The notes under the pieces are model-generated. The model saw only the letters and a list, made by a program, of their open reading frames with translations, ran no database searches and was not told the origin of the DNA. Shown here piece after piece: positions 4,736 through 63,300 of a DNA stretch of 64,000 bases. Source of the stretch: Eledone cirrhosa (Eukaryota); NCBI GenBank assembly GCA_964016885.1, contig OZ024764.1, positions 17,174,001-17,238,000 on the forward strand. The letters run 5' to 3'. Each line of letters opens with the position of its first letter. Position 1 is the stretch's first letter. The position numbers and the translations under genes are program-made.

Positions 4736-4822
4736 ATGGTTAAGGTGGTATTTCTTCTCTGAAGACCTTCTGGTGCCCAGCTTTCCTGGGAGTTTCTGAC
4801 CACCTAAATTACTTCTTTCCAG

Positions 4823-4973
4823 ATAAAAAGTTTGACATGACCGTTCCAGTTGTTATGAATACCAAGGGTACAGACAAGACAATGTGGTTTTACCTGGGTA
4901 CAGGTGAGTACCCGAAGGCAAACAATGATGTAGTGGAGGTCGTTACAGTAAAGGAATTTGAAGTCTACGTCTG
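4823..4973 (+). CDS. SOUL/heme-binding protein family, internal coding exon
   Basis: ttccag acceptor at 4821-22 and gtgtgt donor at 4974. Translates (D)KKFDMTVPVVMNTKGTDKTMWFYLGTGEYPKANNDVVEVVTVKEFEVYV(W), matching the SOUL 'KI.MT.PV..M.F.LP..P.P....V....VYV' pattern. Phases 1 in and 2 out fit both neighbours. Confidence 0.88.
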
Positions 4974-5129: not shown

Positions 5130-8040
5130 AAGCATGACCAGTCAAGCTCATGGATGTTATTCAACCATCTTGTTCAGGGTTTATCCCTAGGTCTCCTGTC
5201 AGTTGGTTTTACATGTTAAATCTCTCCAGACATTCTAACCACATGTCTGTAGTATCAGAGCTGTGATCTCTCAATTCAGAGATTCTTTCCTCAGACATTC
5301 TAACCACATGTCTGTAGTATCAGAGCTGTGATCTCTCAATTCAGAGATTCTTTCCTGAGACATTCTAACCACATGTCTGTAGTATCAGAGCTGTGATCTC
5401 TCAATTCAGAGATTCTTTCCTCAGACATTCTAACCACATGTCTGTAGTATCAGAGCTGTGATCTCTCAATCCAGAGATTCTTTCCTCAGACATTCTAACC
5501 ACATGTCTGTAGTATCAGAGCTGTGATCTCTCAATCCAGAGATTCTTTCCTCAGACATTCTAACCACATGTCTGTAGTAACAGAGCTGTGATCTCTCAAT
5601 TCAGAGATTCTTTCCTCAGACATTCTAACCACATGTCTGTAGTATCAGAGCTGTGATCTCTCAATCCAGAGATTCTTTCCTCAGACATTCTAACCACATG
5701 TCTGTAGTAACAGAGCTGTGATCTCTCAATTCAGAGATTCTTTCCTCAGACATTCTAACCACATGTCTGTAGTATCAGAGCTGTGATCTCTCAATCCAGA
5801 GATTCTTTCCTCAGACATTCTAACCACATGTCTGTAGTATCAGAGCTGTGATCTCTCAATCCAGAGATTCTTTCCTCAGACATTCTAACCACATGTCTGT
5901 AGTATCAGAGCTGTGATCTCTCAATCCAGAGATTCTTTCCTCAGACATTCTAACCACATGTCTGTAGTATCAGAGCTGTGATCTCTCAATCCAGAGATTC
6001 TTTCCTCAGACATTCTAACCACATGTCTGTAGTATCAGAGCTGTGATCTCTCAATCCAGAGATTCTTTCCTCAGACATTCTAACCACATGTCTGTAGTAT
6101 CAGAGCTGTGATCTCTCAATCCAGAGATTCTTTCCTCAGACATTCTAACCACATGTCTGTAGTATCAGAGCTGTGATCTCTCAATCCAGAGATTCTTTCC
6201 TCAGACATTCTAACCACATGTCTGTAGTATCAGAGCTGTGATCTCTCAACCCAGAGATTCTTTCCTCAGACATTCTAACCACATGTCTGTAGTATCAGAG
6301 CTGTGATCTCTCAATCCAGAGATTCTTTCCTCAGACATTCTAACCACATGTCTGTAGTATCAGAGCTGTGATCTCTCAATCCAGAGATTCTTTCCTCAGA
6401 CATTCTAACCACATGTCTGTAGTATCAGAGCTGTGATCTCTCAATCCAGAGATTCTTTCCTCAGACATTCTAACCACATGTCTGTAGTATCAGAGCTGTG
6501 ATCTCTCAATCCAGAGATTCTTTCCTCAGACATTCTAACCACATGTCTGTAGTATCAGAGCTGTGGTCTCTCAATCCAGAGATTCTTTCCTCAGACATTC
6601 TAACCACATGTCTGTAGTATCAGAGCTGTGATCTCTCAATTCAGAGATTCTTTCCTCAGACATTCTAACCACATGTCTGTAGTATCAGAGCTGTGATCTC
6701 TCAATTCAGAGATTCTTTCCCGAGACATTCTAACCACATGTCTGTAGTATCAGAGCTGTGATCTCTCAATCCAGAGATTCTTTCCTCAGACATTCTAACC
6801 ACATGTCTGTAGTATCAGAGCTGTGATCTCTCAATCCAGAGATTCTTTCCTCAGACATTCTAACCACATGTCTGTAGTATCAGAGCTGTGATCTCTCAAT
6901 CCAGAGATTCTTTCCTCAGACATTCTAACCACATGTCTGTAGTATCAGAGCTGTGATCTCTCAATTCAGAGATTCTTTCCTCAGACATTCTAACCACATG
7001 TCTGTAGTATCAGAGCTGTGATCTCTCAATCCAGAGATTCTTTCCTCAGACATTCTAACCACATGTCTGTAGTATCAGAGCTGTGGTCTCTCAATCCAGA
7101 GATTCTTTCCTCAGACATTCTAACCACATGTCTGTAGTATCAGAGCTGTGATCTCTCAATTCAGAGATTCTTTCCTCAGACATTCTAACCACATGTCTGT
7201 AGTATCAGAGCTGTGATCTCTCAATCCAGAGATTCTTTCCTCAGACATTCTAACCACATGTCTGTAGTATCAGAGCTGTGATCTCTCAATCCAGAGATTC
7301 TTTCCTCAGACATTCTAACCACATGTCTGTAGTAACAGAGCTGTGATCTCTCAATTCAGAGATTCTTTCCTCAGACATTCTAACCACATGTCTGTAGTAT
7401 CAGAGCTGTGATCTCTCAATCCAGAGATTCTTTCCTCAGACATTCTAACCACATGTCTGTAGTATCAGAGCTGTGATCTCTCAATCCAGAGATTCTTTCC
7501 TCAGACATTCTAACCACATGTCTGTAGTATCAGAGCTGTGATCTCTCAATCCAGAGATTCTTTCCTCAGACATTCTAACCACATGTCTGTAGTATCAGAG
7601 CTGTGATCTCTCAATCCAGAGATTCTTTCCTCAGACATTCTAACCACATGTCTGTAGTATCAGAGCTGTGATCTCTCAATTCAGAGATTCTTTCCTCAGA
7701 CATTCTAACCACATGTCTGTAGTATCAGAGCTGTGATCTCTCAATCCAGAGATTCTTTCCTCAGACATTCTAACCACATGTCTGTAGTATCAGAGCTGTG
7801 ATCTCTCAATCCAGAGATTCTTTCCTCAGACATTCTAACCACATGTCTGTAGTATCAGAGCTGTGATCTCTCAATCCAGAGATTCTTTCCTCAGACATTC
7901 TAACCACATGTCTGTAGTATCAGAGCTGTGATCTCTCAATTCAGAGATTCTTTCCTCAGACATTCTAACCACATGTCTGTAGTATCAGAGCTGTGATCTC
8001 TCAATCCAGAGATTCTTTCCTGAGACATTCTAACCACATT
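5130..8040 (-). repeat. 65-bp satellite (about 43 copies, 5228-8040) amplified from an RTE LINE 3' segment, with degraded RTE flank at 5130-5228
   Basis: The unit cattctaaccacatgtctgtagtatcagagctgtgatctctcaatccagagattctttcctcaga has a 65-nt period (5231, 5296, 5361). The minus strand reads IERSQL*YYRHVVRMSEERIS. Confidence 0.92.
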
Positions 8041-8044
8041 AACC

Positions 8045-8390
8045 AAGGTTAAATTTGCCTTCCATCCTTACGCGGTCGATAAAATAAAGTACCAGTCACG
8101 CACTGGGGTCGATTTAATAAACTTTCCCCTCCCCTAAAATTACTGGCCTTGTGACTATATAAGAAACCATAGGCAGTATCGGTAGAGGGTCGGACGCCAT
8201 GCTTTGCAGCATAGAGTTACGCCCCTTTATGATCTGAGCTAAAATCCTGCCGAAGTTAACTTTGTCTTTCATCCTTATGGGGTCGATAAAATAAAGTACC
8301 AGTCATGCACTGGGGTCGATTTAATTGACTTTCCTCTCCCCCAAAAAACTGCTAGCCTTGTTCCCGTAGTGGAAACCTTTATTATTAATG
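8045..8390 (+). mobile_element. two tandem copies (first partial) of a second SINE family with a Meta-domain-like core
   Basis: The core gttaactttgcctttcatccttacggggtcgataaaataaagtaccag is shared with 13840-13930, 17618-17790, 29925-30020 and 56639-56830. Confidence 0.75.
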
Positions 8391-8411
8391 TTTTTAAAAA
8401 AATATTTTCAG

Positions 8412-8592
8412 GGGCTACGACGAAATTTTTCCAAATTGGGCAGCGAACGAGATAAAGTTGAGGGACTCTTTGAATAAAGATGGGGCCAGTTATGACCAGA
8501 GTTCTTCCTATAGGGTTGGATACAGCCGTCCTATGGACATAATCCATAAACATAAGGAAATCTGGTATTTGAAGACAAACTCCCAGTTTTAA
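8412..8592 (+). CDS. SOUL/heme-binding protein family, terminal coding exon
   Basis: ttttcag acceptor at 8410-11. Translates (W)GYDEIFPNWAANEIKLRDSLNKDGASYDQSSSYRVGYSRPMDIIHKHKEIWYLKTNSQF*, with TAA at 8590-92. This matches the SOUL C-terminal 'L..AL....Y..AGY..P....R.NEVW' motif. Confidence 0.88.
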
Positions 8593-8987: not shown

Positions 8988-9289
8988 TGTATATATATAT
9001 ATATACATCATATATATATATATATACACACAGACACACACATATATATATATATACATATATAATCGAAGAAATTGAAGAAGAAGACCGTTAAAATATA
9101 TTATATATATATGTATATGTATATATAGATATATATATATATATACATACATATATATATAGATATTTTATAGAAATTACTTATTAAATTTTTATGTATT
9201 TTTCTATGAATAAAAATCTAAAATATATCAATTCTTTGTTATTTTAATATTCTTATTAATATTATTAAATCTTTAGTAATACGTATAAT

Positions 9290-9943: not shown

Positions 9944-9974
<31 letters not shown>

Positions 9975-9980
9975 CTTTTT

Positions 9981-10038
<58 letters not shown>

Positions 10039-10197
10039 TGTAGTAATTCCATCGGAAAGGTCCAGGAAAAAAGAGTGCTCTATGTAGGTTACAGAGCTTA
10101 ATAGTTATGTAATAAACAACATAAGGCAATTATTTCATTTACCAGTGGTTTCTTAAAAGCAAACAAATTTTGCTTTCAATCATCAGAATGAGGATTT

Positions 10198-10258
10198 TTT
10201 CATTCTGATGATTGAAAGCAAAATTTGTTTGCTTTTAAGAAACCACTGGTAAATGAAA
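10198..10258 (+). ncRNA. type I hammerhead ribozyme motif (Penelope-like/retrozyme associated); mirror copy on the minus strand at 10137-10190
   Basis: Stem I tttcatt/aatgaaa; core CTGATGA at 10205-11; 11-bp stem II ttgaaagcaaa/tttgcttttaa; GAAA at 10239-42; stem III ACC-act-GGT; GUA cleavage triplet ending at 10251. Confidence 0.8.
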
Positions 10259-10609
10259 TAATTGCCTTATGTTGTTTATTACATATATATATATTACAAT
10301 TGAATATAAAAGAAAAACGAACACAGATATATACATATATGTGTTCAAATCGTAAGGGACCAGATTTGCTAAGGTGAAAAAAATACTAACTATGGTCATA
10401 TATATATCTATATATCTGTGTTCGTTTTTCTTTTATATTCAATTATAATATAAGGCTCGGAAAAATCTCTTTCCTAGAGTTATTTTATTGAAAGAGACTA
10501 TTTTGAGTTTCTAACTCAATATATACCTTTGATATATATATATTTGCAAGCAGGGAAAAGCGGACGTAAAATGAAATGATGATGATGATGATGATGATAT
10601 ATATATATC

Positions 10610-12115
10610 ATCATTCATCATCATTTTACGTCCGCTCTTCCCTGCTTGCAAGGGTGGGATGGGTCTTATTCAGCACAGCATCTCTCCACCTGTCACGGTC
10701 CTTCGTCATCTCCACCGTGAGCTTCAATGATCTGAGGTCTGTTCTCACCACCTCCACCCATGTTTTTCGTGGTCTACCTCTACCACGTCTTCCTTCAACT
10801 GGCATTTCCTGGCACTTCTTCACCCATCGGTCATCCTCCATGCGCATCACATGTCCATACCACCTCAGTCTCCTCTCCCGTACACTACATTCTATCCCTC
10901 TCAGACACAGTTTCTCTCTCACCACATCACATGTCCATACCACCTCAGTCTCCTCTCCCGTACACTACATTCTATCCCTCTCAGACACAGTTTCTCTCTC
11001 ACCACATCACATGTCCATACCACCTCAGTCTCCTCTCCCGTACACTACATTCTATCCCTCTCAGACACAGTTTCTCCCTCACCACATCACATGTCCATAC
11101 CACCTCAGTCTCCTCTCCCGTACACTACATTCTATCCCTCTCAGACACAGTTTCTCTCTCACCACATCACATGTCCATACCACCTCAGTCTCCTCTCCCG
11201 TACACTACATTCTATCCCTCTCAGACACAGTTTCTCTCTCACCACATCACATGTCCATACCACCTCAGTCTCCTCTCCCGTACACTACATTCTATCCCTC
11301 TCAGACACAGTTTCTCCCTCACCACATCACATGTCCATACCACCTCAGTCTCCTCTCCCGTACACTACATTCTATCCCTCTCAGACACAGTTTCTCTCTC
11401 ACCACATCACATGTCCATACCACCTCAGTCTCCTCTCCCGTACACTACATTCTATCCCTCTCAGACACAGTTTCTCTCTCACCACATCACATGTCCATAC
11501 CACCTCAGTCTCCTCTCCCGTACACTACATTCTATCCCTCTCAGACACAGTTTCTCTCTCACCACATCACATGTCCATACCACCTCAGTCTCCTCTCCCG
11601 TACACTACATTCTATCCCTCTCAGACACAGTTTCTCTCTCACCACATCACATGTCCATACCACCTCAGTCTCCTCTCCCGTACACTACATTCTATCCCTC
11701 TCAGACACAGTTTCTCTCTCACCACATCACATGTCCATACCACCTCAGTCTCCTCTCCCGTACACTACATTCTATCCCTCTCAGACACAGTTTCTCTCTC
11801 ACCACATCACATGTCCATACCACCTCAGTCTCCTCTCCTGTACACTACATTCTATCCCTCTCAGACACAGTTTCTCTCTCACCACATCACATGTCCATAC
11901 CACCTCAGTCTCCTCTCCCGTACACTACATTCTATCCCTCTCAGACACAGTTTCTCTCTCAACACATTTATGCTGGGTCGTTCACGCACATTTACACTGC
12001 ACATCCAACGGAGCATGCTTGCCTCATGTCTCTCCAGCCGTCGCATATCCTCTGCAGTTGCTGCCCATGTCTCACTACCATGCAGAAACTGCGCATCTCA
12101 CACAGGCATCATATG
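10610..12115 (-). mobile_element. RTE LINE 3' fragment with an internal 60-bp tandem array (about 18.5 copies, 10846-11960)
   Basis: The flanks are collinear with the intact fragment at 25467-26070 (ETWAATAEDMRRLER...RWYGHVMRMEDD...GRGRPRKTW...REERT* followed by (TGA)n). The array unit encodes VREKLCLRGIECSVRERRLRWYGHV. Confidence 0.93.
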
Positions 12116-57854: not shown

Positions 57855-58240
57855 ACGATATTAACAAATGGAAACTATATTTATAAAACCATATCTATTT
57901 TATTATACATATTTCAAGGATACCATGTTAAATTATGGTGTGCTTTCATCAGACAAAATACAGTTTTATAAATAAATTTTAACATACCCTTTCAAAATGC
58001 AACCGTTACTTAAAATTTATTTATAAAACTGGTATATATTGTATTTTGTCTGATGAAAGCATACCATAATTTAACATGGTGTCCTTGAAATATGTATAAT
58101 AAAATAGATATGGTTTTATAAATATAGTTTCCATTTGTTAATATATCGTATGTTTATTCCAAAAACTTGTCGAGTGCTTTATATCAGTTATAAAAATATT
58201 TGCTTGTTGTATCCCAACAATTTAAATAGAACTTTTGCAT
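57855..58240. mobile_element. inverted Penelope-like pLTR pair, each arm with a hammerhead motif (57897-57959 minus, 58043-58105 plus)
   Basis: Inverted arms of about 120 bp. The plus-strand motif reads attttgt-CTGATGA-aagcataccat/atggtgtcctt-GAAA-tatgta-TA-ataaaat. Confidence 0.72.
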
Positions 58241-62922: not shown

Positions 62923-62961
<39 letters not shown>

Positions 62962-62964
62962 AAT

Positions 62965-63295
62965 TAATAAATGGAAACAATATTTATAAAACCATATTTA
63001 TTTTATTATATATATTTCAAGGGCGACCAATGTAAATTATGGTGCGCTTTCATCAGATAAAATACAGATTTGTTTTATAAATAAATATTGACATACCCGG
63101 AAAAAAGACAACCTTAAGGGTTGAAATTCGGTGGATAGTTCTTGAAATATGTGTAATAAAATAAATATGGTTTTATAAATATAGTTTCCATTTATTTAAT
63201 ATATTGTATATTTACTCCACTAACTTGTTGAGTGCTTTATATCAGTTATAAACATTTTTAAGCTTGTTGAATCCCAACAAATTAAATATAACCTC

Positions 63296-63300
<5 letters not shown>
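62965..63300. mobile_element. diverged copy of the inverted Penelope-like pLTR pair; hammerhead motif at 63000-63063 (minus)
   Basis: Collinear with 57855-58240. The minus strand reads attttat-CTGATGA-aagcgcacca/tggtcgccctt-GAAA-tatata-TA-ataaaat. Confidence 0.7.

Follow-up and report, generated by a model that had tools for sequence, protein, structure and literature searches.

The window analysed here, a 64,000-nucleotide stretch of Eledone cirrhosa DNA (contig OZ024764.1, positions 17,174,001 to 17,238,000), contains a hammerhead-bearing palindrome that is the stump of a Hydra-type Penelope-like element (PLE), in the published form of inverted pLTRs plus a tail. It very probably arose as a single, severely 5′-truncated insertion of an element with Hydra-clade motifs into (TA)n, likely by double priming. 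Membership in the family, the pairing of one tailed with one short arm, the (TA)n target and the link to an RT/GIY-YIG frame are directly supported. Taken alone, the window copy is an unremarkable PLE footprint, without edits and without sign of function, and the main interest lies in the statistics of the family and in probably edited siblings elsewhere in the genome.

Structure of the unit in the window

A sequence-only reading of this DNA had described a perfect palindrome, and the two 86-bp arms (10106-10191 and 10200-10285) are indeed exact reverse complements around an 8-nt loop, GGATTTTT. If extended, as in an inverted-repeat search, the arms reach 91 nt at 98% identity. The unit is bigger than that reading had it, since the 69-nt tail and the (TA)n target were both missed. 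Its features are as follows.

9950..10036, no strand: left (TA)n target microsatellite with one interruption, from the sequence
10037..10105, minus strand: left pLTR tail, 69 nt, unpaired in the hairpin
10106..10191, minus strand: left arm, a 5′-truncated pLTR copy, tailed
10135..10191, minus strand: left-arm type I hammerhead fold by descriptor, predicted cut after 10140, mirroring the right arm
10192..10199, plus strand: 8-nt loop, element sequence of the right (short) arm, with a junction overlap of 1 nt
10200..10285, plus strand: right arm, a 5′-truncated pLTR copy with the short end, without tail
10200..10256, plus strand: right-arm type I hammerhead fold, predicted cut after 10251
10200-10204/10252-10256, plus strand: right-arm stem I, with the core at 10205-10211
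10212-10238, plus strand: right-arm stem II, followed by GAA (10239-10241) and stem III (10242-10250)
10284..10294, no strand: right (TA)n target remnant, from the sequence

Both flanks of the palindrome are (TA)n, a repeat in which a target-site duplication is not legible. The two arms show 0 differences from each other and 0 A-to-G changes.

The window holds several other repeats. Adjoining the palindrome, positions 10290-10522 belong to another abundant repeat family (2,102 candidates) that ends at (TA)n and combines a short inverted arm with a longer tailed arm; it looks like a PLE-type stump, and the descriptor found no type I hammerhead in it. At 10543-10651, the 3′ end of a common retroelement is present in two inverted copies (88% arm identity) around (ATG)n(TA)n. 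Positions 57855-58240 contain another palindrome with hammerheads arranged head to head, which comes from an unrelated family and has 86% arm identity; it has a palindromic AUAUGUAU helix III and a tail on one arm, and it lies in (TA)n. The third unit, at 62955-63300, is of that same family, one arm keeping the hammerhead and the other lacking the 5′ half. Three long stretches, 6400-8100, 10765-12020 and 1-1200, are tandem arrays, with unit lengths of 65, 80 and 95 nt. Elsewhere in the same genome, L021:2605, L053:635, L057:2343 and L059:977 belong to further, unrelated families of type I hammerheads in which helix III is palindromic.

Family membership and the parent element

A PLE origin with inverted pLTRs had been proposed for the palindrome, and this holds, as the pLTR family is linked to an RT/GIY-YIG frame. 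Copies are plentiful: at least 41 are identical to one arm over 90 nt (40 of 886 candidates scored), the 55-nt hammerhead has 173 exact copies in the genome, and tight head-to-head pairs number 33, with 0 for the reversed controls in both of the latter searches, so chance is not the explanation. A 20-letter lineage motif has about 7,500 genome matches (related hammerhead halves), and among the first 100 of these, 24 have a head-to-head partner no more than 150 nt away; thus, such palindromes probably number in the hundreds. The young age suggested earlier for the window copy agrees with the finding that both of its hammerheads are the commonest variant.

Copies stop at one of two places, a fixed short end or a point about 65 nt beyond it, and in every case they abut (TA)n or a comparable microsatellite. 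The tail measures 65-69 nt, and the short end is constant to within a few bases. Some have RT and GIY-YIG coding pieces in their upstream sequence. The endonuclease search returned 57,626 candidates, and among the 150 that were scored six have open frames of 713-715 codons. The full-length order is pLTR, tail, frame, decayed internal pLTR copy, microsatellite-rich spacer and pLTR, and the sequence that forms the left-arm tail in the window connects, in full-length elements, with the 5′ leader preceding the RT/EN frame. The internal decayed copy in L061-L068 sits about 400-500 nt past the stop codon and carries GUG or UUG. At its 5′ end L062 has the same head-to-head palindrome, the tailed arm of which leads into a 711-aa RT/GIY-YIG frame whose protein (P0003) contains RWK, DKT, YRDD, CxCX5C, CxxC and CxH. 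As judged from such protein motifs, the parent element is a PLE with Hydra-clade features; Pfam recognised neither its RT nor its endonuclease. Intact frames sit in a sister subfamily that is 87-90% like the pLTR in the window. Examined copies of the window's own subfamily have frames with frameshifts or deletions, and in L040, which is 94% like the window pLTR, the tail runs into the frame and there is an internal deletion.

Two parts of the sequence-only reading find no support here. It had spoken of a retrozyme, and there is no head-to-tail tandem in the unit, which has one hammerhead per strand, head to head. It had also taken a non-autonomous unit as the main reading. Junctions vary among copies and longer copies enter the RT/EN frame, so the window copy is better described as a 5′-truncated stump.

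A separate observation concerns G000:C1:399279482-399362711, where four copies of a rearranged element insertion lie about 28 kb apart as a local tandem duplication. This insertion is composed of an inverted endonuclease piece, an RT piece and a pLTR.

Formation of the palindrome

One tailed and one short arm were found in 83 of 89 head-to-head pair rows (27/28 in a smaller set), the rows having been gathered regardless of tail state and including a few non-independent loci (L101/L102, L270/L271 and L321 twice). Of 57 scored pairs, 30, including the window, have a short arm that extends further 5′ than the tailed one, 12 show the reverse, and 15 are ties; the corresponding p of 0.008 is naive, as copies are not fully independent. 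Junctions differ among copies and sit at self-complementary spots.

Double priming would account for the unit as follows. Both cut target strands would prime reverse transcription on the element RNA, at its two start sites. The left arm would be cDNA begun at the tail end and the right arm cDNA begun at the start position 65-69 nt further upstream, after which these short products would be joined end to end at short self-complementary spots. In the accessible text of PMC11167929, both strands of the target are cut and extended by a PLE protein, which initiates at two positions on the RNA, one at either boundary of the tail. A family with hundreds of stumps is a ready test of double priming as the origin of PLE inverted halves.

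The inverted arm could also have come from self-priming (snap-back) on the cDNA or on an antisense template, rather than from two target ends. The accessible portion of PMC3846280 proposes self-priming on an antisense template for PLE palindromes, in place of double priming, and it is in keeping with such an origin that junctions favour self-complementary motifs and that the loop is on the tailed arm in 12 of the 57 scored pairs, with 15 ties. On the other hand, the loop belongs to the short arm in 30 of the 57, including the window, and a short arm that carries the loop could therefore not have templated the tail; the constancy of the short end across copies also speaks against it. We regard self-priming as unlikely. 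Its plainest form, snap-back of tail-primed cDNA, would put the loop on the tailed arm; it cannot give pairs in which the short arm reaches further 5′ and is rejected for most pairs. Double priming thus remains the account that we prefer.

Hammerhead folds and ribozyme activity

The descriptor recovers the type I hammerhead claimed for each arm on both strands, with the core starting at 10205 (+) and 10186 (-). The 11-bp stem II, the ACC/GGU stem III and the GUA listed in the sequence-only reading were found as well; GAA is present and stem II has one G-U pair. The cut expected after 10251 (+) agrees with the descriptor, which predicts the one on the minus strand after 10140. Descriptor and folding together show CUGANGA, GAA and NUH at the three-way junction. 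In an isolated single arm this junction is the minimum-energy structure, but with a z of only about -2, and in folding stem III is roughly half formed in the monomer. Two arms can also pair their ACCACUGGU strands in the folding calculation, giving an 8-bp helix with one mismatch at -8.2 kcal/mol.

The suggested check against Rfam (RF00163) fails, in that no hammerhead family reached the gathering score and none was among the 75 matches up to E 10. There were many miRNA-precursor hits, all below the gathering score, and these reflect no more than the long hairpin. The G10.1-C11.1 pair closing stem II is absent, with U and A instead, and the position is unpaired in 9 of 16 chosen variants. Across the same 16 variants 93% of cells are paired and stems I and III are nearly invariant, while in stem II two pairs change from A-U to G-C and pair 22-39 is broken in 7. 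Covariation support is modest because each of the two stem II changes is a single subfamily event. The sister lineage keeps stems I and III and has a different stem II that is still paired at its base, and in copies chosen for having the core, N7 is U, G, C or A depending on the subfamily.

Eight full-length elements found by protein, all from one subfamily, have GUA in every terminal copy and GUG or UUG in the internal copy. By the NUH rule, GUG or UUG at the cut site should not cut. A contrast of this kind between terminal and internal copies is expected if cutting within the transcript is selected against, and it gives an indirect hint that these ribozymes may cut in vivo. The GUG-type cut site has 336 matches genome-wide; we considered whether these form a ribozyme-dead active subfamily and rejected the idea, as most of the 30 loci read are the internal decayed copy. 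With regard to 5′ ends at the predicted cut, 13 tight palindromes have their junction in that region and three have an arm starting at the cut. The region of this junction is self-complementary and is not clearly richer in junctions than the stem I region.

PLE hammerheads that cleave as dimers have reportedly been described in a 2017 paper in RNA Biology. The hammerheads studied here are probably passengers of the pLTR, and any activity that they have in the parent RNA is predicted to depend on dimer formation or on help from protein. In the accessible text of PMC11167929, a PLE hammerhead is active only with protein and is dispensable for insertion in vitro.

Read-through RNA and the SOUL gene

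Upstream of the palindrome, Pfam points to a SOUL gene.

about 4801-4971 and 8398-8592, plus strand: SOUL heme-binding protein exons (Pfam, each below the cut-off alone)

The contigs of one run, X24, include one in which the two SOUL exons are spliced together. The X24 contigs listed cover parts of repeats, and none of them is specific to the palindrome locus in the window. With the stop at about 8592 (+), the distance of 1.5 kb given earlier between stop codon and palindrome is right. An AATAAA stands at 9209, some 830 nt upstream of the insertion and within AT-rich sequence that is unique; it suggests that the SOUL mRNA ends before the insertion.

As had been pointed out from the sequence, the antisense arm is transcribed before the ribozyme on either strand. 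In folding calculations the palindrome forms a hairpin of -135 kcal/mol. The ribozyme fold, if imposed, carries a penalty of about 77 kcal/mol, and its helices have negligible probability once the cut site is transcribed. The competition between hairpin and cleavage that had been envisaged was therefore overstated: with a gap of this size and the antisense arm first, there would be no real competition, and read-through RNA would be a long dsRNA and not a ribozyme. These energies predict that the hammerheads at this locus are silenced by the 86-bp hairpin whenever it is read through.

The palindrome might instead be seen as a working regulatory device for SOUL, in which cleavage is set against the hairpin in the 3′ end. 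It does lie 1.5 kb past the stop and on the SOUL strand, and SOUL is a spliced gene in the one run mentioned. However, the AATAAA precedes the insertion, the copy is young, the same architecture stands at an estimated hundreds of unrelated sites and twice more in the window, and the ribozyme fold is thermodynamically shut off in the folding calculations. A regulatory role is in our view extremely improbable, and we keep to the reading of an ordinary PLE footprint.

Sibling palindromes with probable RNA edits

The sequence-only reading had also named such hairpins as potential ADAR substrates, and this part of it is strengthened by probable fossil edits in sibling copies. The loci concerned are the following.

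G000:C2:396909000-396909210 (L107): palindrome with a one-strand A-to-G cluster confined to the paired arms
G000:C919:58830-59090 (L305): palindrome with a one-strand A-to-G cluster confined to the paired arms
C2:317055400-317055950 (L106): probable source of L107, on the same chromosome and still present
C7:42697147, C17:39416907, C25:6533476 and C28:89290611: four single-arm A-to-G candidates

Compared with two siblings of the same junction, L107 has 19 arm differences, of which 17 are A-to-G on one strand (17/70 A), and in its tail and flank at most 1/80 A is changed (Fisher p 1e-5 versus the arms). None of the seven A that follow G is changed (0/7), and the edits hit A15.1 and the cut-site base. 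For L305, 19 of the 20 arm-to-arm differences are of the one-strand A-to-G type, and the orientation of the edited RNA is that of SOUL read-through at the window locus. A search with A-to-G fixed at one site gave 22 genomic matches, 6 of them with two or more further A-to-G changes, whereas the control with A-to-T fixed at the same site gave 0 of 18 with further A-to-T. Comparison of 13 further candidate loci yielded one clear edited palindrome, L305. Four of the 13 (L301-L304) have 5-9 A-to-G changes in single arms and are ambiguous; the remaining candidates look like subfamily variants and were rejected as edited palindromes.

Since the A-to-G changes stand in genomic DNA, they were likely copied back by reverse transcription. 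The pattern of substitutions makes it likely that the hairpin RNAs behind L107 and L305 were hyper-edited by ADAR and then re-inserted, with assembly error as the alternative, and the two are clean candidate cases for RNA editing made heritable via retrotransposition. In its accessible text, PMC5625713 describes Penelope RNA as heavily edited in a lizard and octopus RNA as edited generally, and the accessible part of PMC2873906 deals with APOBEC-type DNA editing and RNA traces. In a literature search that covered few subscription papers, we found no report of ADAR-edited PLE copies fixed in genomes.

These siblings also bear on whether the window copy could be secondary, that is, a palindrome made elsewhere, transcribed whole and re-inserted as a small non-autonomous element. 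Recurrent junctions exist in the family, one in L106, L107 and L113 and another in the window and L120, whose centre junctions are identical. L107, with its RNA-editing signature, has the same junction as L106 and about 290 nt of flank in common with it, which indicates that whole-palindrome re-insertion does occur in the family, so the window copy could be a product of it. Against this, the window and L120 have no common flank and each has its own variants, the variant of L120 being specific to that locus and present in both its arms; junctions differ among most of the 33 tight pairs; and the window arms are without A-to-G changes. A secondary origin of the window copy is thus quite unlikely, and a primary truncated insertion is still preferred.

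For the family as a whole, we offer with some hesitation, as a possibility that falls short of probable, that PLE stumps are a second-generation mobile class. Read-through RNA would form the long hairpin, which would shield the ribozyme, germ-line ADAR would hyper-edit the RNA and re-insertion would proceed from either start site, with edits that are inherited and that kill or diversify the hammerheads. If this is true, the rule that the short arm usually reaches further 5′ would reflect the tandem copying of one RNA by two RT molecules.

Comparison with known systems

Insertions of EN+ PLEs with an inverted, 5′-truncated pLTR and a tail at one end are described in the accessible portions of PMC8557442 and PMC3846280. 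The window unit is like those in PMC8557442 in its head-to-head pLTRs, one-arm tail, (TA)n target and pLTR hammerhead; it is unlike them, as far as that text goes, in being reduced to two ends and in having a tail of 65-69 nt as opposed to 30-40. The accessible supplement of the same paper includes Penelope-13_HM, a Hydra element for which it lists an inverted copy and one hammerhead per strand.

The accessible part of PMC8557442 characterises the Hydra clade by RWK, DKT, a CxCX5C linker, and CxxC and CxH in a C-terminal GIY-YIG. L062 resembles members of this clade described there, such as Hydra-1_Obim of octopus, in its protein motifs, its C-terminal GIY-YIG and its (TA)n target. Hammerheads of the Hydra-1_Obim type, as they appear in that text, likewise have the acca-N-tggt helix III and a stem II flanked by one additional base per side; the stem II of 10-11 bp found here is longer than in the Hydra-clade hammerheads shown. 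Elements of the clade are stated in the same portion to be generally under 3 kb, whereas L062, L066 and L067 measure 4.2-4.7 kb from pLTR to pLTR because of a long microsatellite-rich 3′ part with a second, decayed pLTR copy (GUG cut site).

Metazoan PLE hammerheads in the accessible text of PMC4209133 are type I, with a long helix II, a short helix I and a palindromic helix III that allows a dimer form, and the present ones share these traits. The Schistosoma hammerheads there include pairs on opposite strands, 100-700 bp apart. The G10.1-C11.1 pair, highly conserved in that set, is U and A here. Non-LTR retrozymes, in the accessible part of bioRxiv 10.64898/2026.07.22.740005, likewise have a type I hammerhead derived from a PLE pLTR and encode no protein, but they are head-to-tail with two ribozymes on one strand, unlike the head-to-head unit with one ribozyme per strand described here. 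Finally, the edited siblings are like the ADAR hyper-edited repeat dsRNA in the accessible text of PMC5625713 in their clustered A-to-G changes within paired inverted repeats and in the sparing of A after G; what sets L107 and L305 apart from the RNA editing recorded there is that their changes stand in genomic DNA.
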